From: Myxococcota bacterium | Lineage (GTDB): Bacteria; Myxococcota_A; UBA9160; UBA4427 | Length of the DNA: 64,000 bases | NCBI GenBank assembly: GCA_965250285.1 | Contig: OZ252299.1 | Coordinates: 3,744,001-3,808,000, forward strand | Direction of reading: 5' to 3' | In this document: piece by piece, positions 3,471-59,184 of the stretch | Numbering within the stretch: the stretch's first letter is position 1 | How the letters are laid out: every line of letters starts with the position of its first letter | Notes under the pieces: model-generated | What the model saw: the letters and a program-made list of their open reading frames with translations, nothing else | What the model was told of the DNA's origin: nothing | Databases searched by the model: none | Made by a program: the position numbers and the translations under genes

Positions 3471-4724
3471 ATGATGAGCGATCCTGACCGCTTCGATCCC
3501 GACCGCGGCAGCGAGTACGAAGTGGTGCTCGACCGCGCTGGCACGCGCACGGCCGCACACCCGACCCGCCCCGAGATCAGGCTTCTCGACCCCGAGTTCT
3601 ATGTCGACCCCGAGCCGCTCTTCGCGTGGATGCGCAGCAAAGCGCCCGTCTACTGGGACGACGCCACCGGCATCTGGGGCATCACCCGCTACGCCGACAT
3701 CATGACCGTCTCGCGCGACGCGGCGACGTTCTGCTCGGGCCAGGGGTCGCGGCCCGAGTCGTCGGTGCCGAGCATGATCAACACCGATCCCCCCGATCAC
3801 AACCGGCGACGGGGCATCGTCTCGGCCGGCTTCACGCCGCGGCGCGTGCAGGCCCACGAGCGGTTCCTGCGGCAGAAGGTCGGCGAGCTGATCGAGGCGG
3901 TATCGAAGCGCGGGGCGTGCGACTTCGTCCGCGAGATCGCGACGCCCCTGCCGATGTGCATGATCGGCGAGCTGATGGGTCTGCCCGAAGCCGACTACGA
4001 CAAGCTGCTCGAATGGTCGGATCTCTTCGCGACCGGCGGCGACGAGATCCGCGGTGAGGTGGGCCCGGCCGTCGTCGACTACGCCGACTACATCATGGCG
4101 ATCATCGAGGCGCGCCGGGGCAGCTCGAGCGACGATCTCGTCAGCCTCGTCGTGAATGCCGAGTTCGAGGGCCAGCGCCTCACCGACCCCGACCTGATCT
4201 TCGAGACGATGCTGATCCTCGTGGGCGGCGACGAGACGACCCGCCACGTGATCTCCGGCGGCCTCGAAGCCCTGATGCGTCACCGAGATCAGTGGGATGC
4301 GCTGCGCGAAGACCGGTCGCTGTTGCCGGGTGCGATCGAAGAGATGCTGCGCTGGGCGACGCCGATCCAGAACATGAACCGCACGGCGACCCGAGACGTC
4401 GAGCTCGGCGGGCAGACGATTCGCGAGGGCGACCGACTGCTGCTGCTCTATCCGTCGGGCAACCGCGATGAAGACGTCTTCGATGATCCGGCGCGCTTCG
4501 ACATCCGACGCCAACCCAACCAGCACATGGCCTTCGGTGGCTACGGACGCCATCACTGTCTCGGTGCCCAGCTGGCGCGCCTCGAGCTCACCGTGCTCTT
4601 CGATGAGTTGCTCGACCGAATGCCCGACATCGAGCTCGCCGATCCCGGCGCGCCGCTCGTGCGCCGTCGAGGCAACTTCGTGCTCGGGCTCGAGACGCTG
4701 CCCGTCGTGTTCGGGGTCGCGTAG
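3471..4724 (+). CDS. Cytochrome P450 (CYP142/CYP125-like steroid or lipid oxidase type)
   Basis: GGDETT I-helix, EMLR (ExxR), [11 protein letters not shown] heme-Cys; RBS GGAG before ATG. Confidence 0.95.
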
Positions 4725-7237: not shown

Positions 7238-9265
7238 TCAGCCCGGCGGATCGATCCAGATCGGCGACGACCAGGCGCGTTCGCGAATCGTCGCGGGCAC
7301 GCGCGGGTCGGGATCGCGCCCGAGCCGAATCGCATCGTACGTCGACCAGCGGCACGTCGGATTCTGCAAGACGCGAACGTAATAGAAGGCGCCTCGACTC
7401 GGGTCGTAGTCTTCATCCTGCCAGGCGGCCATCAGCTCACCGGCGCCGAGGCCAGCCTGCGGGCGGCAGTTCGCGAGATCGACCGAGGCGCCGTTGTCGG
7501 GGCATCGACGCGTCACGGGGTCGACCTCGAGCCCATCCGAACAGACGACGTCCTGCACCGACTCGTGCGTCTCGCCCGCCTCGTCGATCCACCCCTTCAC
7601 GACCTGAACGCGTTGCAAGGGTGCGCTCATCCAGTCGGCACCGGCCCAGACGAAGAAGGTCGGGCTCTCGTCGCCGACCTGGTTGAGCCGCAAGACACCG
7701 CCCATCGGAACCCCGCCATTGGTGGCGACGGCGACGGGCTCGCTCTCGCCGACGATCGACTCGTCGAAACCGAAGCCCGCGAAGAACCGCAGCGTGATGC
7801 GGGGACCGGATGTGGCGTAGGCTTCGCGGCGCTTCATGCCTTCGAAGATCGAGTCGCGGGTGTTCTCTTCGGCCCAGACCGCAGCGAGCCCGCCCGAACC
7901 GTGATCTTGCAGGATGCCCTGGTGCGGCTTCGCACCCGGCTGCGTGCGCAGCCTCCGCACCGCCGGTGAACCGACGGCGCCGACCTTGCCCGTGAAGTCC
8001 CACTCCTCGGCGTCCCCGGGGTTCGAGTTGTGGGCGTCGGTCGCGGCGACGAAGCCGAAAGCGAGGGGGTTGAAGCCGAGCTCGCGATCGAGCTGCATCC
8101 CGATCTTGAGACCCTGTCGGGCGAACGACGACTCGAAGGCGCAGCCTGAATCCTGCCCCGGCTCGCAGGGCTCGAGCACCTGCTCGAACGCGCACTCTTC
8201 GTCGGTCGCCCCGACACCGAGTGCGCACTCGGAGGCGCCCTTCACCTGATACATCTCGGCCAGAGGTTCATGCCGCTTGCGCAAGCGCCAGGCATCACTG
8301 TCATACGCTCCGCCGTCCCACGTATGGCGGCTGTAGAAGAGACCCCACCCCTTGTTCATGTTGTGCGGAATCGTCAGGAAATCGCAGTCACCGGTGCACG
8401 CCGCCTCGAGCCCGCGCCACAGCTCGACGGCATTGGGGACGTCCTGGGACGAGATCGCACGTTCGGGCAGCGCATCGCCGTTGAAGATCACGTTGCGATG
8501 GTGCTTGCCCGCGCCGTCGAGGACGGGCGAGAACTCGTAGGCCGCAAATGTGGTGAACACGCCGGGCTCGTTGTGCTCGTCGGCGAGCGACTTGTAGCGT
8601 GCCCAATCCGAGCGGCTGTCGCGCACGCATCGCTCCATCCCGCCCTCTCCCCGAGTGCAGATGGGGAACGCGGCCAGCGAACGCGGTGTGCGGGATCGAT
8701 TCTGATACACGCCGGCCGGCACACTCGGATCGGGCGCGAAGTCGCCCCCCCGGCTTTGGCGCTGCATTAGGAAGAAGGCGGTCATCCAACCCGGCGTCTC
8801 CATGAGCCAGCAGTTGACCTGCTCGAGCAGCGTGGTGTCGTCGTCACCGCATCGCGTGCGCAGGCCGAAGCCCTCGGCGTGGTCGGTGATCGCGACGAAG
8901 TCGAGGGGCCGCGAGAGCTGCATGAGCTCCCCGCCCGCGCTGCGTAGGGGCTCGCCCCGCGCGAACGCGTAGGCATCTTCGACGCTGGCCGTCGTGCCGA
9001 AGAGCACGGCGTCGAGGCTCTCGACCGTGTGCACGTGCACCTCGCCCCAATAGACGTTCTTGAGCTCGTCGTAGGGTCGGGGCTCGAGCACCTCGGGTGT
9101 CGGGATCTCGATCCGGCTGTCGTCCTGCAGTGCGAGGTCACCCGGTGCAGTGGCGGGCACGATGGCCTGCGACAGCTCGTACACCGGCCGCAGGACGAAC
9201 CAGCCGATGATCCCCACGACGAGCAGGGTGAGTGCGCCTGCCCCGAGCACGATCCGCTTCAGCAC
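7238..9265 (-). CDS. DUF3604 domain protein (PHP-like putative metallohydrolase)
   Basis: YWGEVHVHT..SLDA, PLDFVAITDHAE, IPHN, TDAHNS, RERAWSSPIW; N-terminal TM; GTG start with GGAGG. Confidence 0.9.
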   Translation of the reverse strand: MLKRIVLGAGALTLLVVGIIGWFVLRPVYELSQAIVPATAPGDLALQDDSRIEIPTPEVLEPRPYDELKNVYWGEVHVHTVESLDAVLFGTTASVEDAYAFARGEPLRSAGGELMQLSRPLDFVAITDHAEGFGLRTRCGDDDTTLLEQVNCWLMETPGWMTAFFLMQRQSRGGDFAPDPSVPAGVYQNRSRTPRSLAAFPICTRGEGGMERCVRDSRSDWARYKSLADEHNEPGVFTTFAAYEFSPVLDGAGKHHRNVIFNGDALPERAISSQDVPNAVELWRGLEAACTGDCDFLTIPHNMNKGWGLFYSRHTWDGGAYDSDAWRLRKRHEPLAEMYQVKGASECALGVGATDEECAFEQVLEPCEPGQDSGCAFESSFARQGLKIGMQLDRELGFNPLAFGFVAATDAHNSNPGDAEEWDFTGKVGAVGSPAVRRLRTQPGAKPHQGILQDHGSGGLAAVWAEENTRDSIFEGMKRREAYATSGPRITLRFFAGFGFDESIVGESEPVAVATNGGVPMGGVLRLNQVGDESPTFFVWAGADWMSAPLQRVQVVKGWIDEAGETHESVQDVVCSDGLEVDPVTRRCPDNGASVDLANCRPQAGLGAGELMAAWQDEDYDPSRGAFYYVRVLQNPTCRWSTYDAIRLGRDPDPRVPATIRERAWSSPIWIDPPG

Positions 9266-9416
9266 CGAAGACGCCCTCCTCCGCGACGTCCTCCTCGCCA
9301 GACACGGCTCGGGGCGACGCGAACGGTGACCACGCGATGCGTTCACATATCACATCTGACGATGTCATCGGCGCCGAACTCGCGCCGTCGCTGCTTCGGA
9401 ACGAGGGCGAGGCCCC

Positions 9417-10940
9417 TCACACCTCGCCGGAGTAGGCCTCGCAGAGATTCCAGAGGCGCGCGCGGTCTTCGTCGGATTCACGCGTCCACGGAAGGAGGTG
9501 CGTCTTTCGCGCACGGCGATCGAAGTAGAACCGACCGCTCTCGATCGTTTCGCTGTCGCTCGCCGCGAGCCACACGACCGTATCGGCCCCCTCCGCCGGC
9601 GAGCGCAGGATCGCCTCGGTGACCCGGTGAAAGGTGGGGAGCGACGAGGCGACGGCTGGGGTGTCGGCCCAGCCCGGGTGCATCGACGTCACGGTGACGC
9701 CCTCGGCCTCGAGTCGCTCGGCCCACATCTCGGCCAGCACGACCTGCGCGCGCTTCGTCTCGGCGTAGGCGAGCACGCCGTCGTAGTCGCGCCGCGACCA
9801 ATCGGGATCGTCGAGGTTCAGCGCTCGCGTGTACATCCCCCCGGACGAGACCCAGATCAAGCGACCATCGGACGACGCCGCGAGCCGGTTCTGGAGCATC
9901 CGCGTCAGCAGGTAGGGGCCGATGCAGTGCGTCGCCCAGGTCAGCTCGATGCGTTGCGGCGACAAGACGCGCATGTCGGGCAGCACCCCGGCGTTGTGCA
10001 CCAGCACGTCGACGGGCGACTCAGCCAGCCGCTTGCCCGCTGCACGCACCGAGTCGAGATCGCTCATGTCGACCACCTCGAGATGCACCGCCGCGTTGCC
10101 GGTGCGGGCCCGAATCTCTTCGACGGCGGCGCGCCCTCGCCCCTCGCTCCGGCAGAGCAATACGACCTCGGCACCGAGATCGGCCAGCGCCTCCGCGGTC
10201 GAGCGGCCGATGCCCGAGTTGGCGCCGCTCACGAGACATCGCCGTCCGCTGAGATCGACCTCGAGGTCGTCGGGCTCGAACGTGAGCGAGTGGATGCGAT
10301 AGCCGGTGCGATCGAATGAGCCGACGATCAGCGGGTCGACGACCCGCGAGAGCGCCTCGCCGACGATGCGCTGCGCGCGTGACACCTCGATGCGCTCGTC
10401 GAGGCTGGGTGCATCGCGATCGAGCGCCGCGAGAATGTCCTCCGGGCGGGCGTGGTCACCCGCGACCTCGCTTCGATGGCTGAACGTCAGGCGCCCACCG
10501 GGTTGGATCACGAAGGCGCCGCCGAGCTGCCAGGGGTCGCCCTGGACGCCTTCCTGGCGATGCCCCGCGGCCAGCGCGCGCCCGGCATTCACGGCGAGGC
10601 GCGGTGACAGCACCTCGACGCGGCCGCGCCGCAGCCCCGCGGCGCGATAGGCGCGCAGCTCGGGGTCGACCAGGAGCGGGCCCTCGAGTGCGAAATCCTC
10701 ACGAAACGCCTCGGCGAAGGAGCGAGCGCCGTTGCCGACGATGACCAGCTCGGCGCCTTGTTTTTGGATCTCGGGAAGGGCGTCGCGCAACTGCGCGACC
10801 TGCTCGCGGCAGAACAGTCAGCCGAAGTGGCGCAAGAAGACCAGGACCGCCGGGCGGTCACGCCAGTACGAGCCCAGCGCGAAGCGGTCGCCCGCCGCGT
10901 CTTCGAGCTCGATCGGCGTGAGTTGGCGCACGATGTCCAC
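9417..10940 (-). CDS. Selenocysteine-containing AhpC/TSA (peroxiredoxin-like 2/SelL-related) redoxin fused to a DHRS12-like SDR
   Basis: GGAG-N6-GTG at 10940; codon 41 is TGA (10818-10820) in VFLRHFG*LFCRE, in frame with the 457-aa ORF; redoxin motifs LVDP..RAY and QGDPWQLGGAFVI; SDR motifs SGANSGIG, YAETK, MHPGWADT. Confidence 0.9.
10782..10817 (-). promoter_or_regulatory. Candidate bacterial SECIS element
   Basis: GTCGCGC-AGTT-GCGCGAC: perfect 7-bp stem, loop 25 nt after UGA, G at loop position 2. Confidence 0.7.
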
Positions 10941-11065
10941 GGTCGACTCCAGTCGGTGAACCAGGCAGATGCCGGCCGCGGCCCGAAGGTCACGCTCCGA
11001 CCCCCGGGCCGGCGCTGAGGATCGTCTCGAGCGCCGGGCCGCGGCGACGCGGCGAAGCAGCCGCT

Positions 11066-11239
11066 CTACGCCACGCGTCGCAGCCTTCGCGATCGCTCGC
11101 CGCGGCTGTGCTGCGCGCGGACCCGCACTTTGGCCGTCTGCGTGCGCGCCAGGTAGCGCTCACGCAGAAACACGTAGGCGCCGCCGAAGGCGATGAACGA
11201 GATCGCCACCCCGAACGTGAGGATCTGCATGTCATTCAT
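11066..11239 (-). CDS. Small single-TM protein with a basic tail
   Basis: MNDMQILTFGVAISFIAFGGAYVFLRERY; start overlaps the end of the upstream ORF. Confidence 0.6.
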   Translation of the reverse strand: MNDMQILTFGVAISFIAFGGAYVFLRERYLARTQTAKVRVRAQHSRGERSRRLRRVA

Positions 11240-11468
11240 GGTCATGACTCCCGATGAGCAGGTTGGCGGCCGAGAGGATCGACGGGACCCAGAGTCCGAC
11301 GAAGATCCCCTCCTCGCGCTGACCAGCGAAGAAGAGGTAGACGGAGGCGGCGAGCGACAGGCCCGCAGCAAGAAAGAAGAGCGCCTTTGGCGTGGTGACC
11401 CCGAGCGCCGAATCGATCGCGGCATCCTCACGGTCTTCGCGCCGGACGTGCTGCACCTTCACCTCCAT
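11232..11468 (-). CDS. Small membrane protein
   Basis: GGAGG RBS; two hydrophobic segments, GIFVGLWVPSIL motif. Confidence 0.7.
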   Translation of the reverse strand: MEVKVQHVRREDREDAAIDSALGVTTPKALFFLAAGLSLAASVYLFFAGQREEGIFVGLWVPSILSAANLLIGSHDHE

Positions 11469-11574
11469 GACTGACCTCCGCGCTGATCCGGGCGATGAGG
11501 ACCCGGCCTGGGCCACGCAGCGCGGTCTCTCGCCGCTTCGCGTCTCCCAATGGCTTCTCAGATGCACCCTCTGA

Positions 11575-11635
11575 TCATGAAGTATCGTTTTTGTTTAATA
11601 TTACTTGTTCAAAATTGATATTCGGGGCATGTTCT
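11575..11635. promoter_or_regulatory. AT-rich divergent promoter region
   Basis: Sharp AT-rich patch (TTTTTGTTTAATATTACTTGTTCAAAATTGATATT) between divergent small genes. Confidence 0.55.
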
Positions 11636-11653
11636 CCGTGGGAGCACGCCACG

Positions 11654-11827
11654 ATGAGTGAGGCGAACGAGACCAATCGGCGGGAATGGGCGGCGCGAGC
11701 GTTGGGGGTTGCGGTGGGCCTTTTCGCCGCGGCCGTCGCCTGGTCGACCCTTCGCTGGCCAGCCCCTGCGATCGCGTTCGCGCTGGGCTTCGGGGCCTAT
11801 CTCGCGGCGAGCCCGAAGGAACACTGA
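11654..11827 (+). CDS. Small two-TM protein
   Basis: GGAG RBS, 57 aa, two hydrophobic helices. Confidence 0.55.
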   Translation: MSEANETNRREWAARALGVAVGLFAAAVAWSTLRWPAPAIAFALGFGAYLAASPKEH

Positions 11828-11884
11828 GCGTCGCGGCCAGGTGATCCGCGCGCGCTGGTCGGCGATCCGCCATTCGGCGTAGGC

Positions 11885-13369
11885 TCAGACCTGGCCGCGC
11901 GTGAGCCCGCGCAACAATCGATCAGCCGTCTCGAGCGTCTCAGCCCGGTCCGCCAACCTGTCGAGGCTTCGAACGGCCATCGACGTACGGGGGTAGCGAC
12001 TCAACCGGTCGCGATGTCGGTCGACGAAGCGCCAGTAGAGCGCCGTCAGCGGGCACGCCGCGTCGCCGACGCGCCGCTTCGGATCGTACGCGCAGTCGCC
12101 GCAGTGATCGCTCATGCGGTTCATGTACGCGCCACCCGCCGCATACGGCTTGGACGCCATCTGTCCGCCGTCGGCGTGGAGCCCCATGCCGATCACGTTC
12201 GGCACCATCACCCACTCGGCCGCGTCGACGAAGCTGCGCTCCATCCACGCGAGCAGATCCAGCGGACGCACGTCGGCCAGAAGCCCGAGATTCGCGAGCA
12301 CCATCAAGCGCTCGATGTGATGCGCCCAGCCCCGCTCATGCACGTTGCCGACGGCGGCGCGCACGCAGGCCATCGATGTTCGAGCCGGATCTTCGAAGCT
12401 CGGCAGCAGCTTGCGCCGCGCACCCAGTGCGTTGAGGCTTCGGTAGTCGGGCATCCAGAGCCAGTAGACGCCCCAGACGTACTCACGCCAGCCCGCGATC
12501 TGACGAACGAAGCCCTCGGCGGATGCGATCGGGACGCGCCCTTCGCGGTAGGCGCGCTCGGCCGCCTCACAGACCTCTGCGGGATGCAGCAGCCCGATGT
12601 TGAGCGCCGGGCTCAGGAGCGCGTGGGCCAGATGCCACGACCGCGTCGTCATCGCATCCTGATGCGGGCCGAACTGCGGCAGGCAGTCGTCGACGAAGTG
12701 ACGCAGTCGCTTGAGCGCCGCGCGGCGCGAAGTGGGCCACCAGCCTTCGGGATCGGCTCCAAAGCCTGCTTGCCCGATCTCATCGAGCACCTCGCGATCG
12801 ATCGCGTCGAGCTGTGAGCGTACAGGCGCCGGCCAGACGCCCTCCTTCGGCGGGGGCTTTCGGTTCTCGGGGTCGAAGTTCCAGCGCCCGCCCGCCGGCT
12901 CGTCGCCATCCATCAAGTACCCGAGTCGGGCGCGCTGCCAGCGGTAGAAGTTCTCCATGCGCAGCGCGCCGCGGTCGTTGGCCCAGGCGCGAAATGCGTC
13001 GGGATGACACAGGAACTGGTCGTTGGCCACGAGCTCGACGCCCCAGTGCTCGAGCCGTTCGGCCGCGCCGAAGCGGCTCGGCTCCATCGCGACCACGCGC
13101 TCGGGAGCGTGCTGCGCCACATGCGCTTCGAAGCCGACGCGCATGCTGGTCGCCTTGCGATAGTCGACTTCGAAGCCCGCCCCTTCGAGCTCCGAAGCGA
13201 ATCGGCGCATCGCAGTCATGTAGAGATGAAGTCTCTGACGGTGCCAACGGTGGGCGCGAAGGCGGGCCTCGCTCTCGACGAGCAGCACGCGTGTATCGGC
13301 CGGGGTGCAATCGCGCAGCGAGGCGATCTGGCGGTTCAGCTGATCTCCCAGGATCCAGACGGTCTGCAT
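11885..13369 (-). CDS. Fe-S bacterial cryptochrome/(6-4) photolyase family protein (FeS-BCP/CryPro)
   Basis: WILGDQL, RMENFYR, GGRWNFD..NR, EGFVRQIAGWREY, HHIERLMV, SKPYAAGGAYMNRMSDHCGDC, ACP (Fe-S cysteines). Confidence 0.95.
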   Translation of the reverse strand: MQTVWILGDQLNRQIASLRDCTPADTRVLLVESEARLRAHRWHRQRLHLYMTAMRRFASELEGAGFEVDYRKATSMRVGFEAHVAQHAPERVVAMEPSRFGAAERLEHWGVELVANDQFLCHPDAFRAWANDRGALRMENFYRWQRARLGYLMDGDEPAGGRWNFDPENRKPPPKEGVWPAPVRSQLDAIDREVLDEIGQAGFGADPEGWWPTSRRAALKRLRHFVDDCLPQFGPHQDAMTTRSWHLAHALLSPALNIGLLHPAEVCEAAERAYREGRVPIASAEGFVRQIAGWREYVWGVYWLWMPDYRSLNALGARRKLLPSFEDPARTSMACVRAAVGNVHERGWAHHIERLMVLANLGLLADVRPLDLLAWMERSFVDAAEWVMVPNVIGMGLHADGGQMASKPYAAGGAYMNRMSDHCGDCAYDPKRRVGDAACPLTALYWRFVDRHRDRLSRYPRTSMAVRSLDRLADRAETLETADRLLRGLTRGQV

Positions 13370-13438
13370 GGTTGCGGCCCCTCGTTGAAGTCGTTCGAGC
13401 GCACGCACGCCCGATCCGGAGCCGCGGCTCGCCCCGCT

Positions 13439-14215
13439 TCAGCGCTCGTCGGCGTCCCGCGACAGCTTGAGCTGCCCGAGCGCCTTGCGACGCAGGTAGG
13501 CGTACTGCTCGAGCAGCGGCAGCCCTTTCGGACAGACGTCGTGACAGCCCATCAGCCCCACGCAGCCGAACACACCCTGGTCGCTCGCGACGACGTCGAA
13601 CCAGTCGTCCTCGTCTCGGGCGTCCCGGGGATCGCGCATGAATCGCGCAATCCGATTCAGGCCGGCCGCTCCGACGAAGTCGTCGCGCACGTTCGCAACC
13701 CCGCAGCCGGCGATGCAGCAGCCGCACTCGATGCAGCGCTCACCCTCGTAGATCGCCTGGGCCAGCTCATCGTCCATTCGTTCTTCGACGGCCTCGGGAT
13801 CGAACGGCGCCTTCTCGTGCACCCAGGCACCGACGCGCTCGGCCATGTTTCGAAACCACGTGCCGGTATCCACCGAGAGATCGCCGACCATCTTGAAGAC
13901 AGGCAGCGGCTGCAGCCGAATCGTGTCGGGCAGGTCGCGGGTGAGCGTCTTGCAGGCGAGCGCCGGCCGACCGTTCACGACCATTCCGCACGAGCCACAG
14001 ATGGCCGACCGGCACGCAAAGTCGAACTGCAGGCTCGGGTCGAGTTCTTCACGGATCTCGTTGAGCGCCGTGTACAGGGTCATGTACGGCTTCTCGACCA
14101 GCTCGAACGTGTCGAAGCGCGGCTTCGAGTCGGGGGCTTCCGGGTTCAGTCGGAAGACTTCGAACACGAGGGTGCGGCCGACGTCGATCGAGACTTCTTG
14201 CACGATCATGGACAT
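13439..14215 (-). CDS. frdB: Fumarate reductase Fe-S subunit
   Basis: CRSAICGSC..LAC, CIECGCCIAGC, CVGLMGCHDVCPK; RBS AGGAG. Confidence 0.93.
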   Translation of the reverse strand: MSMIVQEVSIDVGRTLVFEVFRLNPEAPDSKPRFDTFELVEKPYMTLYTALNEIREELDPSLQFDFACRSAICGSCGMVVNGRPALACKTLTRDLPDTIRLQPLPVFKMVGDLSVDTGTWFRNMAERVGAWVHEKAPFDPEAVEERMDDELAQAIYEGERCIECGCCIAGCGVANVRDDFVGAAGLNRIARFMRDPRDARDEDDWFDVVASDQGVFGCVGLMGCHDVCPKGLPLLEQYAYLRRKALGQLKLSRDADER

Positions 14216-14232
14216 TCGATCACTCCTGCACG

Positions 14233-16200
14233 CTACTCGCTGCGCTGCGGCGGCGACGTGTGATCCGCCGAGTCTTGCCAGCGCCCCCACCGCATCCGGC
14301 TGCCCAGCGGTTCGGAAGGGTCAGGTGCACCGCCGGCGCCCCAGGCAGCGCCGACGGCGCGGTTGTAGTCCTCGATCGAGGACTCCATCCCGACGGTGAG
14401 ACTCTTGCCGTAGCCCCGGTCGCCCGGCGGCAGATCGATCAAGCCCACCGGCTCGTACGAGAGGCGGGCCGCGCCTTCGTCGTGGGACCAGTGGGCGAGT
14501 GTGCGGTTGAGCCAGCGATCGTCGTCCCGTGCCGGATGGTCGGTTCGGTAGTGGGCACCGCGGCACTCCGTACGAGCGAGGGCGCCCTGCGCGGTGATCA
14601 GCGCGAGGCGCGCCATGCCCTCGAGGCGCAGCGCGAACGTGAGCTCGGGGTTCGCGCCGGGCGCCTTCGAACGCAGGGCCGCACGGCCGACCAGCGCGAG
14701 CTGCCCTTCGATCTCCTTCGTCGCCTGCTCGAGCTCTTCACCGTTGCGAAAGACGCCGACCTTGTGATTGAGCGTCTCGGCGATCGCGTCGCGAATCGCG
14801 TACACGGTCGGGCCATCGGCGGATCGCTCGAGCCAATCCACGAGCCGGCGGTCGACGTCGTGGTGGAACGCATGCGCGACGGCCGTGTCGAGGGCGAGCG
14901 ACGTCTGCGACGCGAACTCGGCCACGTGGCGCCCGACGAAGCGTCCGGCGACCACCGTCTCGGCGAGGCTGTTGCCGCCGAGCCGATTGAAGCCGTGCAG
15001 ATCCCAGCAGGCCGCCTCACCGACGGCGAAGAGACCGCGCAGGCCGTAGGCCTCGCCGTGCTTGTTGACGCGCACACCGCCCATCGAATAGTGCTGGATC
15101 GGCCGCACCGGGATCGGCTCGCGCGCCGGATCGAGGCCGTTGAAGTCGCGACAGATGTCCCAGACCTCGCGCAGCTTCGTTCGCAGATGCTGCTCACCGA
15201 GATGTCGAAGATCGAGCCACAGGTGCTGGCCCGCGTCGCTCTCGACGCCACGCCCATCCTTGATCTCGGCCATCATGTGGCGCGAAACGACGTCGCGGCT
15301 CGCCAGCTCCTGCTTCTCGGGCTCGGCACGCACCATGAAGCGCTCGCCCTGGGTGTTGAGCAGATACCCCCCGTCCCCGCGACAGCCTTCGGTCACGAGA
15401 ATGCCGCTCGGGACGAGCCCGGTCGGGTGAAACTGCACAGCCTCCATGTTGCCGAGCGGAACGACACCGGTATCGAGCGCGAGCGAGGCGCCAGTGCCCT
15501 CGTTGATCGTTGCGTTGGTCGTGTAGCGACCGTAGATGCGGCCGTGGCCCCCGGTCGCGACGACTGTCGCCTTGGCGACGAAGGAGGTCAGCGCGCCGGT
15601 GCGCAGGCATCGGGTCACGGCGCCCCAGCAGCGGCCAGCGTCGTGGATCAGCGAGAGCGCCTCGATGCGATCGATCACGCGAATGCCGAGGCGCACGACC
15701 TCGCCATCGACGGCGTACAGAACGGCGTGGCCCGTGCCCGCCGACGCGTAGCAGGCGCGCCACTTCGCGGTCCCGCCGAAGTTGCGGTGCATGATCAGGC
15801 CGGCCTTCTCGTCGGGCTCGTCGATCTCGACCTTCTGCCCCTTGACGAAGTAGGTGTTTCGGCCGGGGCGCACGCGCGTCCAGGGCACGCCCCAATGCGC
15901 GAGCTCGCGCACGGCGACGGGCGCCTCTTCACTGAAGATCCAGGCGACCTCCTGGTCGGCGCCCCAGTCGGATCCACGCACGGTGTCGAGGAAGTGCAGC
16001 GTCGGGTCGTCGCCCTCGGCCTTCACGCAGTTGCCGAGTGCCGCCTGCATCCCGCCTTGGGCGGCGCAGCTGTGGCTGCGGCGCGGCGGCACGAGTGAGA
16101 GCAGCGTGACGTCGTGCCCCGCGACTGCGGCCTCGATGGCGCAACGTTCACCGGCCAGCCCGCCGCCGATCACGAGGACGTCGGTCGATCGCAGGTCCAT
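14233..16200 (-). CDS. frdA: Fumarate reductase flavoprotein subunit
   Basis: GGGLAG, RSHSCAAQGG (covalent FAD His), QFHPT, TEGCRG, HYSMGG, HGFNRLGGNSL. Confidence 0.95.
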   Translation of the reverse strand: MDLRSTDVLVIGGGLAGERCAIEAAVAGHDVTLLSLVPPRRSHSCAAQGGMQAALGNCVKAEGDDPTLHFLDTVRGSDWGADQEVAWIFSEEAPVAVRELAHWGVPWTRVRPGRNTYFVKGQKVEIDEPDEKAGLIMHRNFGGTAKWRACYASAGTGHAVLYAVDGEVVRLGIRVIDRIEALSLIHDAGRCWGAVTRCLRTGALTSFVAKATVVATGGHGRIYGRYTTNATINEGTGASLALDTGVVPLGNMEAVQFHPTGLVPSGILVTEGCRGDGGYLLNTQGERFMVRAEPEKQELASRDVVSRHMMAEIKDGRGVESDAGQHLWLDLRHLGEQHLRTKLREVWDICRDFNGLDPAREPIPVRPIQHYSMGGVRVNKHGEAYGLRGLFAVGEAACWDLHGFNRLGGNSLAETVVAGRFVGRHVAEFASQTSLALDTAVAHAFHHDVDRRLVDWLERSADGPTVYAIRDAIAETLNHKVGVFRNGEELEQATKEIEGQLALVGRAALRSKAPGANPELTFALRLEGMARLALITAQGALARTECRGAHYRTDHPARDDDRWLNRTLAHWSHDEGAARLSYEPVGLIDLPPGDRGYGKSLTVGMESSIEDYNRAVGAAWGAGGAPDPSEPLGSRMRWGRWQDSADHTSPPQRSE

Positions 16201-16205
16201 CGCAG

Positions 16206-16997
16206 CTACCCCTTCAGCAGGAAGGCGAGCGGCGGATCGGCCCACCCGGCCAGCACGACGAGCGTGACGGCGCCGAGGCCGAGAAAGCCGACGAGCAGCA
16301 CGCGCTCGATTCGGAGCAGGGTGCGACGACCCAGCCGGGCCCCGATGCCCCACTTCACGGCAAAGCGATAGAGCCCGACGCTCGCATGGAATTCGACGCA
16401 GAGCAGAAGTACGGCGTAGACGACCCAGAGCCCTGCCCCCACCCGGGCCTGCGACGTCGCCGCCTCGATCCCCGTGCGCTCGCCGAACAGCGGCGTCAGC
16501 ACGTCGACGGCGACCAGCACCAGATGGAAGCTGCCCAACACGAGCAGCGTCATGCCCGTCCAGACCTGCCAGAGCCAGAGAGACGACTCGACATGCGGCG
16601 TGTAGCCCGTGCCGCGTGCCTTCAGCTCGTCGCCGAGAGCGCGCAGCCGCCTTCGCTCGCGAATCTGGGCGGGGATCTTGCGGCTCGCGAGGGCGGCGTG
16701 CGTGAGAAAGAGCGCCGAGATCGCAAACACGGTTGGCTGCGCGATGTAGACGTGCTCGAGCCCCGACGCGAGCCAGTCGAAGCCGCGCGCGCCCGTGAGG
16801 ATCGAGCCCACCAGCACCATGTGGCCCCACATGAAGAAGGCCAGTCCCACCCCCGAGAGGCCACTGGCCAGCTCGTACACGAGCTGGCGCTGGGCCTCCC
16901 GGCGGAGAGACGTTGCCCCCGCCCGCCGCTGCCAGGGGAGAGGGGATGCGCGGCGGGCGGGGGGTGAAGTGCGGTCCTGGGGGGTGGCAGCTGCCAT
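16206..16997 (-). CDS. frdC: Fumarate reductase di-heme cytochrome b subunit (Wolinella/Desulfovibrio type)
   Basis: About 5 TM; FMWGHM, HAALASRKIP, WLWQVWTG..FHL, VEFHASVGLYRFAVKWG. Confidence 0.9.
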   Translation of the reverse strand: MAAATPQDRTSPPARRASPLPWQRRAGATSLRREAQRQLVYELASGLSGVGLAFFMWGHMVLVGSILTGARGFDWLASGLEHVYIAQPTVFAISALFLTHAALASRKIPAQIRERRRLRALGDELKARGTGYTPHVESSLWLWQVWTGMTLLVLGSFHLVLVAVDVLTPLFGERTGIEAATSQARVGAGLWVVYAVLLLCVEFHASVGLYRFAVKWGIGARLGRRTLLRIERVLLVGFLGLGAVTLVVLAGWADPPLAFLLKG

Positions 16998-17026
16998 GAC
17001 TGGAACGTATGGCACCCGCATCCCAA

Positions 17027-17079
17027 TGTAAACTCTTTGAATACATTTTATTTGACAAAGAGTGTTCTTTCGATAGCTT
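17027..17079. promoter_or_regulatory. AT-rich divergent control region with an inverted repeat and a sigma70-like promoter
   Basis: ACTCTTTG-N16-CAAAGAGT (17032-17063); TTGACA (17052) -N16- TAGCTT (17074). Confidence 0.65.
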
Positions 17080-17237
17080 CCCGTTCGTCGAGATATAGGA
17101 CCGCGCGGCTCACCGGCCCGTCGGCTCGCGCACAAATCCTCGAACCGGGCAGGAACAGCGATCGTGTCCACGTTCTAGTCGGCAAAAGATGTACCGTCGG
17201 CGAACCCGTCGACGCGAGAAAGAGGAGGTCGACGGCG

Positions 17238-18272
17238 ATGACCCCGCAGCCCCAGGGACCGTCCAATGGAGGGGGAGCACACGTGGCCCAGCAGGATCCC
17301 GATCAGTCGCTGTATCGCGTCGGCACGGCGGCGCAGCTGAGCGGCGTGCCGCCGGCCACCATCCGTGCCTGGGAGCGGCGGTACGGTGCCGTCGACCCGA
17401 AGCGATCCGAGACCGGGCGGCGACTCTACGACGATGAAGACGTCGCGCGGCTGCAGTTGATGAAGGCGCTGACGGATGTCGGCGATCCGATCAGTGCGAT
17501 CGCCAACCTCGATTATGCCGAGCTCCGCGATCGACTCGATCGCCACGCTGCCCGGCCCCAGCCCATCGACGGCGATTCGACGATGGCGACGCGGGTTGCC
17601 CTACTCGACCCCGAGATCGAGGAGCAGATCCGCGCGAACCCCGGCGACTTCTCGCCGCTCGAGGTCGCCGGGGCGGATGGCTCGATCGACTCGTTCATCG
17701 AGCGGCTGCCGGGCATGCAGGCCGACGCGCTCGTCATGCACATCGACCGACTCGGCCCCGACCCGGTGACCGCCGTCGATCAGGCGCTCAAGGCGGCCGG
17801 CGCGAACGTGGCGGTCGTCCTCTACCACTTTGCCGCTGCGCCCACCCTGCGGCGACTCGCCGATCGAGGCGTGCGGCTGCTCATGCTGCCGACGCGCGTC
17901 TCGTCGCTTCGACGCACGATCCGCGACTTCATCGACATCCGCCGGGCGACGGCGGTCCGCGACGCCCTCATCGCGATCGAGTCGCGCGCACCGGATGACC
18001 GCGCGTCGGCGGCCGCCGAGCGACGCTTCACCGATGCCCAGCTGGCCCGGCTGCAAGAGATCACCAGCTCGGTGGAGTGCGAGTGTCCGAGCAACCTGTC
18101 GGGTGTGATCAAGAGCCTGGTCGCGTTCGAGCGCTACAGCAGCCAGTGCGTGAGCGACAGCCCCCGAGACGCCGAGCTGCACCGGGCGCTCGAACGCGGC
18201 ACCGGCCACGCCCGCGCGCTCATGGAAGAGCTGCTCATGCGCGTCTGCGAGCACGACGGGCTGACGATCTGA
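17238..18272 (+). CDS. MerR-family regulator with a CarH/LitR-like HTH and a Cys/His C-terminal domain
   Basis: YRVGTAAQLSGV..TIRAWERRY..R.Y; C-terminal ECECP...FERYSSQC..DAELH; GGAGG RBS. Confidence 0.9.
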   Translation: MTPQPQGPSNGGGAHVAQQDPDQSLYRVGTAAQLSGVPPATIRAWERRYGAVDPKRSETGRRLYDDEDVARLQLMKALTDVGDPISAIANLDYAELRDRLDRHAARPQPIDGDSTMATRVALLDPEIEEQIRANPGDFSPLEVAGADGSIDSFIERLPGMQADALVMHIDRLGPDPVTAVDQALKAAGANVAVVLYHFAAAPTLRRLADRGVRLLMLPTRVSSLRRTIRDFIDIRRATAVRDALIAIESRAPDDRASAAAERRFTDAQLARLQEITSSVECECPSNLSGVIKSLVAFERYSSQCVSDSPRDAELHRALERGTGHARALMEELLMRVCEHDGLTI

Positions 18273-18300
18273 CCCCCGCGCTGCCTGCGAGCCCCCTGCC

Positions 18301-18747
18301 GTGACCACCGCCCTGCTGCTCGTCCACTTTGCGTGCACCTGGTACCTCGTCGGTCTCTGCTGGCTCGTGCAGCGCGTGCAGTACCCGCTGATGAGCGCCG
18401 TCGGCGAGGAAGCCTTCACCGAGTACGAGCAGGGTCACGTCGCGCGTATTACGCCCGTCGTCGCACCGCCCATGCTGCTCGAGGCGGCGAGCGCGATGGC
18501 GCTGGTGATCGCGGCGCCCGCCCTGCTGACCTCCCCGCTCTTCTTGGCCACGGGCGTGCTGCTCGCCGTGATCTGGATCTCGACCTTCGCAGTGCAGGTG
18601 CCGCTGCATACCCGGTTGAGCGAGCGATTCGACGCCGCCGCGCACCGACGACTGGTGCGCACCAACTGGATCCGGACGGTGAGCTGGTCCCTTCGCGGGC
18701 TGCTGCTGCTCCCGATCGTCTTCTCGTGGATCCGCGGGACGGTGTGA
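18301..18747 (+). CDS. Hypothetical membrane protein
   Basis: About 4 TM; WLVQRVQYP, QVPLH..L, LVRTNWIRT. Confidence 0.8.
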   Translation: MTTALLLVHFACTWYLVGLCWLVQRVQYPLMSAVGEEAFTEYEQGHVARITPVVAPPMLLEAASAMALVIAAPALLTSPLFLATGVLLAVIWISTFAVQVPLHTRLSERFDAAAHRRLVRTNWIRTVSWSLRGLLLLPIVFSWIRGTV

Positions 18748-18795
18748 GCTGAAACGCCTTCAGGCGATGCGCAGGACGGCGTCGCCCGTGCGTGC

Positions 18796-19935
18796 TCACG
18801 GCGTAGCGGCCGGTTCCTCGCGCGGCGCCTCGGCTTCCGTACGGCGCAGCACCACGGTCCAGTACCAGAGCTCACAGGCGTAGCGGGTCGTGTGACGCCG
18901 GTAGAGCGCCTCGAAACGGCGGTAGAAGGCATCGCTGAGTCGCTGCACCTCCGTTTCGTTCTCGGCCGACGGCTCGAAGAGCTGCGTCCGCAACGTCGAG
19001 TCAGCGAAGGCCCGCGTGTAGCCCGTGTAGCGCTCGGCATACAGATCGGGGCGATCGACGAGATCCGCGAAGACGTCGCCCGGGTTCACCGCCGCGGGCT
19101 CGACCGCGACGTGCTCGATCTCGAACGCCCGCGCGAGCGCCGCATCTTCGACGAGCGGCCGTCGCACCTCGGCTTCGGTCATGAACCAGAGGCCGAAGAC
19201 GAACGCGTCGAGCACGTCCGGGCGCAACAGGCCTTCGTCGACCATCTCGCGTGCGACCCGCTGCAGAGCGCGGTAGATCCCCCGCCCGGAACACGCCGAC
19301 CCGTTCGCCTCGTTCGCATCGGGGACCGAGCCGAGGGACGAGACCAGCAGCGCACCGCCAGGGCGAAGCTCACTGGCCCGGCACTTCAAGAAGCGCCGCC
19401 AGTCACGCTCGGCGAGTGCGGCGAGCGCATCTCTCGGTGCGCCGTCGAGATCAGCGAACCAGACTGCGTCGGGCGCCTCGACGTGCGGCGCCGCGCTCAG
19501 CCAGTGGGCCGCCGCGAACGAAGTGCCCAGAACGATGGACCCCGGCGCAGCACATACGTCGTAGAAGCTGCCGATCGACGCCTCGGTGCGCACAGGGCCG
19601 GGACCAGCGCCGTACCCCTGCTCACCGGTCGCGCGCCGAAAGAGGGCGTTCCAATCGTTCCCCGGCTGATCCACGTGGCGCACCGTGATCGGCGCTTCGG
19701 CGAAGCGCGCGCGCAGCGCCTGCACCGCTGGAACGACGGCCTGCACGGCGGTGGGCCCCGGGCCACAGCCGTAGTCGGCGATCTCGATCTGGGCCGCGCC
19801 CACGTCCACCCGAGCCGCGAGCGCTCGGATCCGCGCTTCGTGAAATCGGATCAGCTCGAACTGCGCCCGCGAGTTCTCGCCGTACTCGACCATGCCCTCG
19901 GTCGAAGGGGGCGCGGCTCGCTCCGTTTCCTGCAT
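18796..19935 (-). CDS. SABATH-like SAM-dependent carboxyl methyltransferase
   Basis: IADYGCGPG, DQPGNDWNALF, GSFY, AHWLS, DWRRFL..RASELRPGG. Confidence 0.85.
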   Translation of the reverse strand: MQETERAAPPSTEGMVEYGENSRAQFELIRFHEARIRALAARVDVGAAQIEIADYGCGPGPTAVQAVVPAVQALRARFAEAPITVRHVDQPGNDWNALFRRATGEQGYGAGPGPVRTEASIGSFYDVCAAPGSIVLGTSFAAAHWLSAAPHVEAPDAVWFADLDGAPRDALAALAERDWRRFLKCRASELRPGGALLVSSLGSVPDANEANGSACSGRGIYRALQRVAREMVDEGLLRPDVLDAFVFGLWFMTEAEVRRPLVEDAALARAFEIEHVAVEPAAVNPGDVFADLVDRPDLYAERYTGYTRAFADSTLRTQLFEPSAENETEVQRLSDAFYRRFEALYRRHTTRYACELWYWTVVLRRTEAEAPREEPAATP

Positions 19936-20265
19936 GTGTTCCTCGCGTCGGCTCACTCGACGAATCGCCGTCTTCCGCCCGGACGGCCGACTTCACGTCG
20001 ATCAAGATACCAGGACGGCTCGCCTCCGAGCGGATCGCGAGGGCGTGAGGAGAGGTAGCGGAGCGCTCCGCGACTCGGAGGTCGCGGGGTCTCGCTCGTC
20101 GCAGGGCCCGGCTCGCCGGCTGCTCGCGACGCACACCCGATCCGGCCCGTTCGGGCCGTCTCCGAGTGCACGCTCGGCGCGAGATCGGGCGTAACCTCGA
20201 GCGCGCCAGGGCGTATCGAGATCTGCGACCCGCGATGTCGCAACGCCTCGCTGAGGAGGGACTCG

Positions 20266-55687: not shown

Positions 55688-56421
55688 ATGACGCGTCTGC
55701 TGCTGCTCTACCGGAGCGTGCTCGGCAAGAAGGCCATCGTCGCCGTGACCGGCGCGATCATGATGGGCTTCCTGCTGCTCCACGCCGCGGGCAACGTGAA
55801 GGCCTTTCTGCCCGATCCGACCCCCGGTGTCCCCGACATCGACGTGTACGCGCGTTTCCTTCGCACGATGGGCGAGCCGCTCTTCCCCTACAGCGCCATC
55901 CTGTGGCTGGTGCGCGTCGTCCTCGCCGCTTCGCTCGTGCTCCACGTCGTGTGCGTGGTTCAGCTCGCGCTGCACAATCGAAGAGCAAGGCCGCGGGCGT
56001 ACGATCAATACGACTACACCGAGGCCACGACTTCAGCGCGCTGGATGCTGTACACCGGCGGCCTGCTGCTCTGCTTCCTCGTGGTGCACCTGCTGCAGTT
56101 CACCACGGGTACGATCGACGCTTCACGCTTCGTCGAAGGCGAGGTCTACGGCAACCTGTACCGAGCCTTCCATCAGTGGGGCTTCGTCGGCTTCTACCTG
56201 GCGGCGATGAGCGTGCTCGCGCTGCACCTCTATCACGGCGCCTGGAGCCTCTTTCAATCGCTCGGCCTCGACAACCCCGATCGCAACCGCGGACTTCGTC
56301 GCCTGGCCCTCGTGGTCGCCCTACTGCTGCCCCTGATCTTCGCCACGCTGCCCGTGGCCTTCATGTCCGGCCAGATGGATCCGCCGCCCGCGCAGATCGG
56401 CCGGCTCGGTGGGGACCCCCG

Positions 56422-56425
<4 letters not shown>
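55688..56425 (+). CDS. sdhC: Succinate dehydrogenase cytochrome b subunit
   Basis: [40 protein letters not shown]. Confidence 0.93.
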
Positions 56426-58338
<1,913 letters not shown>

Positions 58339-58407
58339 CGGTCACAGCGAGCATCGAACCAGCCACGCGAATCGAAGCACGACGCGCACTCGACGGGACG
58401 ACACGAC

Positions 58408-59184
58408 ATGAAGTTCACCCTGAGCATCTGGCGACAGTCCGGTCCCGACGCAGAAGGCCAGTTCGTCGACTACGAGATCGACGACATCGAGCCGACGACC
58501 TCGTTTCTCGAGATGATGGACACCCTCAACGAGCAGCTGACCGAGGCTGGCGACGAGCCCGTCGCCTTCGACAGCGACTGCCGCGAGGGCATCTGCGGTA
58601 TGTGCTCGATGGTGATCAACGGACGTCCCCATGGCCCGCAGTCGGGCGCTACCACGTGCCAGCTCTACATGCGCCTCTTCGAAGACGGCGACCGCATCAC
58701 CGTCGAGCCCTGGCGCTCGGCGGCTTTCCCGTCGCTTCGTGATCTGATCGTCGACCGCAGCGCCTTCGACCGCATCATGCAGGCCGGGGGCTACGTCACG
58801 GTGCACTCGGGCCCCAAGCCCGAGCCGAACGCGATGCCGATCGACCCCGAGGTGGCCGAGGAGGCGCTCGACGCCGCGTGCTGCATCGGATGCGGCGCGT
58901 GCGTGGCGGCCTGCCCGAACGGATCCGCGTCGCTGTACACGGCGGCCAAGGTCTCCCACCTGGGGCTGCTGCCCCAGGGTCAACCCGAGCGCTATCGACG
59001 TGTGCGCCACATGGTCGATCAGATGCAGACCGAGTCGTTCGGTTCGTGTCGCAGCTATGCCGAGTGCGAGTCGAACTGCCCGAAGGAGATCAGCATCAAG
59101 TTCATCGGGCAGATGAATCGCGACTATCTGCGCGCGATCTTGAAGGAGCCCATCGATCGGCGTGGCCCGATGGATGCGCAGTAG
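58408..59184 (+). CDS. sdhB: Succinate dehydrogenase Fe-S subunit
   Basis: DCREGICGMC, CIGCGACVAACPN, C....EC...CPK. Confidence 0.95.
   Translation: MKFTLSIWRQSGPDAEGQFVDYEIDDIEPTTSFLEMMDTLNEQLTEAGDEPVAFDSDCREGICGMCSMVINGRPHGPQSGATTCQLYMRLFEDGDRITVEPWRSAAFPSLRDLIVDRSAFDRIMQAGGYVTVHSGPKPEPNAMPIDPEVAEEALDAACCIGCGACVAACPNGSASLYTAAKVSHLGLLPQGQPERYRRVRHMVDQMQTESFGSCRSYAECESNCPKEISIKFIGQMNRDYLRAILKEPIDRRGPMDAQ

Follow-up and report, generated by a model that had tools for sequence, protein, structure and literature searches.

Why should an operon for fumarate respiration lie in a cluster of light-response genes? The question is raised by a locus in the genome of a Myxococcota bacterium (GTDB lineage Bacteria; Myxococcota_A; UBA9160; UBA4427), where the genes for a Wolinella/Desulfovibrio-type quinol:fumarate reductase, frdCAB, are followed by a photolyase gene and lie opposite a gene for a MerR-family regulator. 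The DNA analysed, here called the window, is a stretch of 64,000 nucleotides (positions 3,744,001 to 3,808,000 of the forward strand of contig OZ252299.1, GenBank assembly GCA_965250285.1). A first-pass annotation of its sequence had offered two readings, control of the reductase by light or reactive oxygen species (ROS), or a recent insertion of frd into a photoprotection regulon. Synteny, co-occurrence and a conserved predicted CarH-type operator support the former, and point to frdCAB as a likely member of a LitR/CarH light-stress regulon. A further-reaching possibility, to which we give a probability of roughly 0.4, is that non-phototrophic Myxococcota captured frd a single time, probably from the Nqr/multihaem contexts of Gammaproteobacteria, and placed it under the direct control of a photosensory repressor; light-switched fumarate respiration in air would then act as a photoprotective electron valve.

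The gene layout is exactly as first described, with frdC, frdA, frdB and the photolyase gene co-directional on the minus strand, separated in that order by 5, 17 and 69 bp, and the regulator gene, which encodes the RAWERRY motif, divergent on the plus strand across a 240-bp gap (16998-17237). The G+C content of the locus genes (0.68-0.70) and their G+C content at third codon positions (GC3; 0.83-0.88) are in line with those of host genes. A single contig of one sequencing run covers window positions 9000-20000 with zero differences; since that run may be the source sample, this supports assembly consistency only.

frd and light-response genes recur together across genera and families

We surveyed 166 genomes of the order, each at least 80% complete, and counted as close any FrdC of at least 62% identity; the FrdC of one genome (G045, 36% identity) is excluded from all clade counts. 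A close FrdC was present in 22 of the 166 genomes, spread over 6 of 11 families and 12 genera. Class III LitR, the regulator type described below, was found in 18 of these 22 genomes compared to 12 of the 144 frdC-negative ones, and the corresponding figures for a photolyase with a DPRP domain were 18/22 and 18/144. Within a single genus (g14), class III LitR occurred in all nine frdC-positive genomes and in 1 of 19 frdC-negative genomes. In 10 of the 22, litR and frdC are no more than 5 kb apart, a DPRP photolyase adjoins frd in G026 and G149, and in G005 the regulator adjoining frdC is instead a LitR/CarH with a B12-binding_2 domain. Almost every genus has its own gene order around frd, and the neighbours are light genes all the same.

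A GTDB-wide scan, from which the best 80 of 528 matches were used, extended this picture. Loci were divided by record title and G+C content before any tree was built (five Spirochaeta-titled loci were placed with the Myxococcota-like set and one Nitrospiraceae-titled locus with the others), giving 26 Myxococcota-like loci (393 kb; four of these are handle regions, and one genome supplies two of the four) and 58 others (872 kb). A gene for LitR/CarH, photolyase, BLUF or FolE was present at 17/26 clade loci compared to 0/58 of the others, and among metagenome contigs (best 80 of at least 552) light genes were present at 6/10 clade loci and at none of 70 others. The other loci, mostly gammaproteobacterial, have Nqr, ApbE, MtrB/MtrC-like and NapC-type neighbours. 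A scan of 77 selected open reading frames (ORFs) added HiPIP, Nei, SOD, DUF2256, ferritin-like and NDH-2 proteins to the clade neighbours, with HiPIP adjoining frd at seven loci, SOD at two and NDH-2 at one. The linkage is therefore not peculiar to this assembly, as the first-pass annotation had allowed that it might be; it is seen again across genera and families, beyond chance.

At the seven loci with HiPIP (L025, L027, L036, L037, L041, L066 and L069), the protein adjoining frdCAB bears an N-terminal twin-arginine-like leader, and at such non-phototroph-like Myxococcota loci it is possible that it serves as a haem-free carrier for lit cells.

The divergent regulator is predicted to be a class III-type LitR

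The label CarH/LitR-like given at first pass holds for LitR and fails for a B12-dependent CarH: Pfam detects MerR_1 only, with neither B12-binding_2 nor B12-binding domains, and the NCBIfam CarH model scores 34.7 against a cut-off of 400. The predicted structure (mean confidence, pLDDT, 89) consists of a MerR helix-turn-helix with the RAWERRY motif, a receiver-like beta/alpha domain and a C-terminal helical domain, and in Foldseek it matched CarH best, all matches being to CarH or receiver domains. The protein is about 32% identical over 92% of its length to WP_009687760.1 of Burkholderia anthina (31-32% over at least 92% among the plasmid-library homologues). That homologue lies with folE, a sigma factor, cfa, a photolyase, DUF2256 and a fasciclin gene, and a Ralstonia homologue occupies a similar locus with folE, cfa and a photolyase. 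We take the B. anthina locus to be the equivalent of the class III LitR locus of Burkholderia multivorans, the regulon of which was reportedly described by Sumi and colleagues in 2018, with locus genes like those of B. anthina. Among 120 homologues of the regulator, C281 and C283 are invariant and C304 and H315 are at least 90% conserved, and the C281-x-C283/C304/H315 set is also present in the Burkholderia and Ralstonia proteins.

Class III LitR proteins are described as B12-independent and light-responsive (PMC9758184, PMC6739363), and for that of B. multivorans a light-dependent change of spectrum and release of DNA are summarised (PMC9758184). As a full-length homologue of the Burkholderia protein, the regulator adjacent to frd is predicted to be a class III-type LitR acting as a repressor. 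The present system shares with the Burkholderia regulon B12 independence, the C-terminal CxC/C/H set and the company, in the B. anthina and Ralstonia loci, of folE, cfa and photolyase, with sigma factor and fasciclin genes in B. anthina. It differs in that identity is only 31-32%, that the two 21-kb loci examined in Burkholderia and Ralstonia contain no respiratory complex, and that the operator here sits directly on frdC. A canonical B12 CarH with the Wx9-10EH and ExHxxG motifs is encoded elsewhere in this genome (C1:4310439-4311371). Because CarA and CarH share one operator in Myxococcus xanthus (PMC8156234), both RAWERRY regulators could bind the frdC operator, and the B12 CarH may share it.

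A CarH-type operator is predicted over the frdC promoter

On the minus strand upstream of frdC, we predict a leaderless promoter composed of a -35 element TTTACA (17027-17032), a 17-bp spacer and a -10 element TACGTT (17004-17009), with 6 bp to the ATG; transcription would begin at or close to the A of that codon (16997). Half-sites of the TnnACA type start at 17027 and 17038, an 11-bp period, and an inverted one at 17052 reads TTGACA on the plus strand, where it is a candidate -35 element for litR. Of 14 loci chosen by visual inspection, 12 fit this arrangement: an AT-rich tract, a TAGACA-like element, five bases, a TGAACA-like element over the -35, 16-17 bp, TAGnnT, 6-7 bp and an in-frame ATG. 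In the 12 training loci the T and ACA positions repeat at an 11-bp period, and the same repeats were found out of sample in this genome (G000), G026, G082, G149 and five further metagenome contigs. They match the published CarH consensus nAnnTnnACAn, which occurs as 11-bp repeats over the -35 (PMC8156234). The palindrome AATGTA-N11-TACATT (17025-17047) was dropped as an operator, as relatives do not conserve it, and a generic promoter scan gave two matches, neither at 17004-17032, and so missed the frdC promoter.

An operator-promoter matrix was built from the 12 loci, with this genome excluded, and used to scan both strands of the 6.25 Mb genome. The frdC promoter ranked first genome-wide at 27.9 bits, followed by a site at window position 11588 (21.6 bits). 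With the operator part of the matrix only, the frdC site ranked fifth and the site near 11588 third; of the top seven, five are at loci for frd, a photolyase or CarH, one is unrelated, and the remaining one, which ranks first, is situated between folE and a fasciclin-like gene. In a leave-self-out test, 13 of the 21 genomes with upstream DNA scored 17.8-50.7, compared to a maximum of 12.7 for 56 outside loci; four of the 13 (G000, G026, G082 and G149) were never in training, whereas for g14 genomes close kin stay in the training set. Among metagenome contigs, 8/9 clade members scored above 15, three of them near-identical to training loci. The operator-promoter is also kept in G023, G123, G061, G125 and G149, where litR is on a different contig or about 120 kb away.

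The predicted site resembles the CarH/CarA operators of M. xanthus, Thermus thermophilus and Bacillus megaterium in the RAWERRY-type recognition helix of its regulator and in tandem 11-bp nAnnTnnACAn repeats overlapping a sigma-A -35 element. Unlike in those systems, the adjacent regulator is without a B12 domain, the repeats are often inverted pairs, and phytoene/squalene synthase (PF00494) was not found in the present genome.

Operator-like sequences that are candidates for the same regulon were also observed at C1:175-179, 795-800, 4061-4062, 4304-4311, 4592-4595 and 5937-5941 kb of this genome. The genes there, named mostly from reading translations rather than from family scans, are folE/fasciclin-like genes, two cyclobutane pyrimidine dimer photolyases, folE-BLUF, a cfa/DUF1365-like cluster with the B12 CarH, and glutathione-peroxidase-like/FAD (flavin adenine dinucleotide) oxidoreductase genes.

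FrdCAB is an intact dihaem complex II acquired once by the clade

The haem-b histidines of FrdC (H59, H100, H158 and H204) align with the ligands of Wolinella succinogenes and Desulfovibrio gigas, in the former H44, H93, H143 and H182 respectively. E81 and E202 correspond to Wolinella E66, at the quinol site, and E180, of the E-pathway, and both are invariant in nine aligned sequences; the VExH motif noted at first pass is VEFH at residues 201-204. The best model for FrdC is PRK13553, yet its score falls below the equivalog cut-off (117.7 bits compared to 187), and by this measure FrdC is a divergent anchor subfamily that has retained its haem ligands. FrdA scores 913 bits against a PRK08626 cut-off of 663 and FrdB 373 bits against a PRK13552 cut-off of 264, with the FrdA motifs for covalent FAD and the dicarboxylate site intact and the FrdB cysteine sets complete. 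Judged by these residues, FrdCAB is an intact Wolinella/Desulfovibrio-type dihaem complex II (type B). The established energetics of such enzymes are that menaquinone together with an intact E-pathway glutamate favours quinol oxidation by fumarate, the glutamate making turnover electroneutral, so that uphill transfer from succinate to menaquinone could not use the proton gradient. The functional roles of Wolinella E66 and E180 are treated in PMC6175931.

With the W. succinogenes and D. gigas complexes (1QLB, 5XMJ), the present one has in common the C-A-B gene order, three subunits, the haem histidines, the E66/E180 equivalents, the covalent-FAD and active-site motifs and the Fe-S cysteine sets. 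The differences are that the host encodes haem-copper oxidases and two further complex II operons, that frd belongs to a photoprotection cluster and has a CarH-type operator ahead of it, that DcuA/B was not found in the genome, and that FrdC scores low against its model. We also considered the idea that a dihaem Frd makes no ROS, and dropped it; the result is from Bacteroides, where it was credited to the Fe-S subunit (PMC5210497), and is therefore not transferable.

In a FastTree phylogeny of 74 FrdA rows, rooted on one long outgroup (hits of at least 600 aa; duplicates and truncated or frameshifted loci excluded), the 23 Myxococcota-like rows form one clade with support 99, nested among gammaproteobacterial rows, which suggests a gammaproteobacterial donor. 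The recent insertion considered at first pass is contradicted by this single clade, the spread over 6 of 11 families and the host-like GC3, which argue for a single old acquisition. The frdA of G125 (L059/L124) aligns in three pieces, owing to frameshifts or assembly errors. In many sediment Woeseiaceae, a sister FrdCAB has MtrB/MtrC-like multihaem genes on one side and an Nqr operon on the other (loci L044-L100, which come from Woeseiaceae and other Gammaproteobacteria), and this stretch is a candidate respiratory island.

Host physiology leaves room for a specialised role

The genome holds three types of complex II: a b558-type sdhCAB (window 55688-59184, plus strand), an E. coli-type frdABCD (C1:3298.7-3302.1 kb, minus strand) and the Wolinella-type operon, which, given the other two, is not needed for housekeeping. 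menB is present, as are three COX1-family genes, two aa3-like by context and one cbb3-like, and every oxidase found is cytochrome c-dependent. Searches of the genome, which is 95% complete, did not find bd oxidase, DcuA/B, futalosine genes, HiPIP or PF00494. Nor was the PufL/M reaction centre found in it, and a phototrophic host was rejected; a rhodopsin search of the genome gave no match, a weak result as the control matched nowhere either. Two further ideas were rejected. A bd oxidase is encoded by 17 of the 166 genomes of the order and by 3 of the 22 with frdC, so that, because it is rare across the order generally, there is no specific association by which frd would substitute for it. A PF00494 match is present in 13/22 frdC genomes (not separated from hopanoid synthases), which contradicts the idea that frd replaces carotenoids as a general rule.

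A proposed light-switched electron valve and its alternatives

We propose that in the dark the class III-type LitR, and possibly also the B12 CarH, would bind the 11-bp repeats over the frdC -35 element, and that in light the repressor would release the operator and turn on the frdC promoter. The induced enzyme would then oxidise menaquinol with endogenous fumarate, providing an overflow while the cytochrome c/haem-copper oxidase branch suffers light damage. If frdCAB is a regulon member, such an overflow role has slightly better than even odds; taken as a whole, regulon membership included, it falls a little short of even. A partial precedent is Campylobacter jejuni, in which, under 405-nm light, c-type cytochromes lose haem, oxidase transcripts fall and type B frd rises via RacRS (PMC9426514). 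The responses are alike in these respects. Unlike the present system, that of C. jejuni is described as indirect and as belonging to a microaerophile without photoreceptors, under killing doses, with no dedicated photosensor operator.

Several observations weigh against the proposal. Twelve genomes have litR without this frdC and four have this frdC without class III LitR; furthermore, the genomes are kin, with one genus supplying 9 of the 22, and because they are not independent we give the co-occurrence no p-value weight. The operator model in part scores AT-richness and sigma-70 boxes. Matrices with shuffled columns had a mean of 2.2 light loci among their 12 best sites, compared to 5 observed, a value reached by 1 of 30, and for 5 of 30 shuffled matrices the frd site was among the five best, making this a modest control. 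Directly upstream of frdC, 8 of the 21 genomes score below 10. In three of these frdC is downstream of litR (G034, G118 and G058), in G005 it is divergent from CarH, in another three (G073, G074 and G147), within a light cluster, a WS/DGAT gene immediately precedes it, and G022 has neither an operator site nor a light gene. Two of 69 outside metagenome loci score above 15, both within coding sequence. On the physiological side, the type B Frd of C. jejuni is reported to be bidirectional (PMC9426514), three frdC genomes do encode a bd oxidase, this genome is without a detected HiPIP, and, because no DcuA/B was found, the proposal does not account for where fumarate comes from or how succinate is disposed of.

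The main rival places frd in the same regulon and reverses its direction, making it a light-induced replacement succinate dehydrogenase that sustains the tricarboxylic acid cycle when the housekeeping complex II is photo-inactivated. All of the regulon evidence applies equally to it, and it gains from the bidirectional C. jejuni enzyme, from the oxidases of the host and from the failure to find DcuA/B. We nevertheless regard it as unlikely, given that the retained E-pathway glutamate implies electroneutral turnover with no drive from the proton gradient for succinate-to-menaquinone transfer, that identical flavin, Fe-S and haem cofactors confer no evident gain in light resistance, and that the closest relatives adjoin Nqr and multihaem genes. 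These anaerobic-type contexts would in turn suit a regulator that senses redox or oxygen through its Cys/His site instead of light, with frd an ordinary microoxic or anaerobic enzyme in a redox-stress regulon. The CxC/C/H cluster could indeed be a metal or thiol site, and no chromophore is named for class III LitR in the passages of PMC9758184 consulted. We consider this account improbable, as the co-regulated genes are those for photolyases, BLUF, FolE, cfa and fasciclin, absorption of class III LitR is reported to shift in light (PMC9758184), the adjacent position in G005 is taken by the B12-binding_2 LitR/CarH, and the E. coli-type frdABCD is already present.

That frdCAB landed once in an island of light genes and has been carried along passively, outside LitR control, with the motif a conserved sigma-70 promoter, would agree with the single origin of the clade, with the part of the motif ranking that AT-richness explains in the shuffle control and with the patchy distribution (22/166). 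It sits poorly with the retention of light partners through the reshuffling of gene order, and within g14 frd is found only together with litR. The strongest argument against it is that the repeats upstream of the -35 element persist where frd has left litR, as well as in new metagenome contigs, and we judge passive carriage to be very improbable. Least probable of the accounts considered here is a non-respiratory role within the regulon, in which electrons from succinate would reach repair systems of the periplasm or membrane via the quinone pool (HiPIP, a selenoprotein redoxin, desaturation); HiPIP, SDRs, epimerases and a UxxC redoxin do recur near frd, but no partner is constant, and HiPIP was not found in this genome.

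The components are all of known kinds, and it is the wiring of frd to a light regulator that appears new. The literature searched, which did not take in most subscription papers, contained no description of a LitR/CarH-frd link; among the papers not covered is the class III LitR transcriptome, and a respiratory gene could be listed there or in its supplements. The main text of a 2026 Myxococcota preprint has no mention of fumarate, frd or photolyase. In the literature examined, LitR/CarH regulons comprise pigments, photolyases, folate and membrane lipids. A respiratory complex under the same operator would mean that non-phototrophs redirect their electron flow when lit, and if the light-switched valve is real, respiratory rerouting (including HiPIP and NDH-2 in relatives) joins DNA repair and lipid protection among the functions of these regulons. 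A Wolinella-type frd in a metagenome-assembled genome would then be unsafe evidence for anaerobic respiration. The predicted 54-bp operator, leaderless promoter and divergent class III LitR make up a defined system that is testable without culturing the host, and the approximately 120 homologues with invariant cysteines bear on what class III LitR senses.

The photolyase and other neighbouring genes

The photolyase scores 189 bits against PF04244, has a DPRP domain, the cluster cysteines C335, C423, C426 and C439 and the His-His-x-x-Arg motif (as WAHHIER), and matches PDB structures at E values of about 1e-107 to 1e-122. It is like Agrobacterium PhrB and Rhodobacter CryB in its family, four cluster cysteines and PDB matches, and unlike them in being encoded by the last gene behind frdB, an arrangement found in 2/22 genomes; in G149 the order is identical with a 3-bp gap. 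The first-pass annotation had asked whether the gene has a promoter of its own. No promoter, operator or terminator was found in the 69-bp gap behind frdB (74% GC; best operator score -6.9), and for this reason co-transcription with frd by read-through is likely. Two further photolyases are encoded elsewhere in the genome.

Table 1. Features of the frd locus and its surroundings, with positions in the window.
Feature	Position	Strand	Basis or remark
frdC, dihaem cytochrome b anchor	16206-16997	-	PDB 5xmj_C, 1qlb_C; residues invariant in alignment
frdA, flavoprotein	14233-16200	-	PRK08626; covalent-FAD and dicarboxylate-site motifs
frdB, iron-sulfur subunit	13439-14215	-	PRK13552; [2Fe-2S], [4Fe-4S] and [3Fe-4S] cysteine sets
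FeS-BCP / CryB-PhrB-type (6-4) photolyase	11885-13369	-	PF04244; PDB 9hnk, 3zxs, 4dja
Class III-type LitR (MerR), predicted repressor	17238-18272	+	Pfam MerR_1; Burkholderia homologue; conserved Cys/His
Membrane protein ORF	18301-18747	+	No Pfam match; recurs in light clusters
Predicted divergent promoter/operator	17004-17057	frdC side minus	Sequence; layout in relatives; genome-wide rank
Second AT-rich operator-like site	11575-11625		Genome scans; between divergent small membrane ORFs
Small membrane ORFs around second operator-like site	11654-11827; 11232-11468; 11066-11245	+; -; -	
SelL-like/AhpC-TSA redox domain-SDR fusion	9417-10940	-	In-frame TGA 10818-10820
SABATH-type S-adenosylmethionine-dependent carboxyl methyltransferase	18796-19956	-	PF03492; convergent with cluster

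The family of the membrane ORF behind litR adjoins frd, litR or photolyase genes at many loci, and 11% of its members carry an anthrone-oxygenase-like annotation, which is a lead only. A homologue of the SelL-like/SDR fusion adjoins litR in G042, G057, G066, G069 and G058, and the gene is likely to be a member of the frd/litR regulon. Its in-frame UGA lies within an RHFG-U-LFC motif and predicts a selenocysteine (UxxC); the UGA and the bases downstream are kept in G042, G057 and G066, where the gene adjoins litR, and tRNA-Sec is encoded in this genome. The fusion is a predicted selenoprotein that would belong to a light regulon. By eye, the small membrane ORFs behind the second operator-like site resemble short ORFs between CarH and frdC in G005 (L018:10501-10773), and similar short ORFs lie upstream of another photolyase in this genome (C1:4593.8 kb). 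The carboxyl methyltransferase beyond the membrane ORF belongs to the SABATH family, which is best known from plants.

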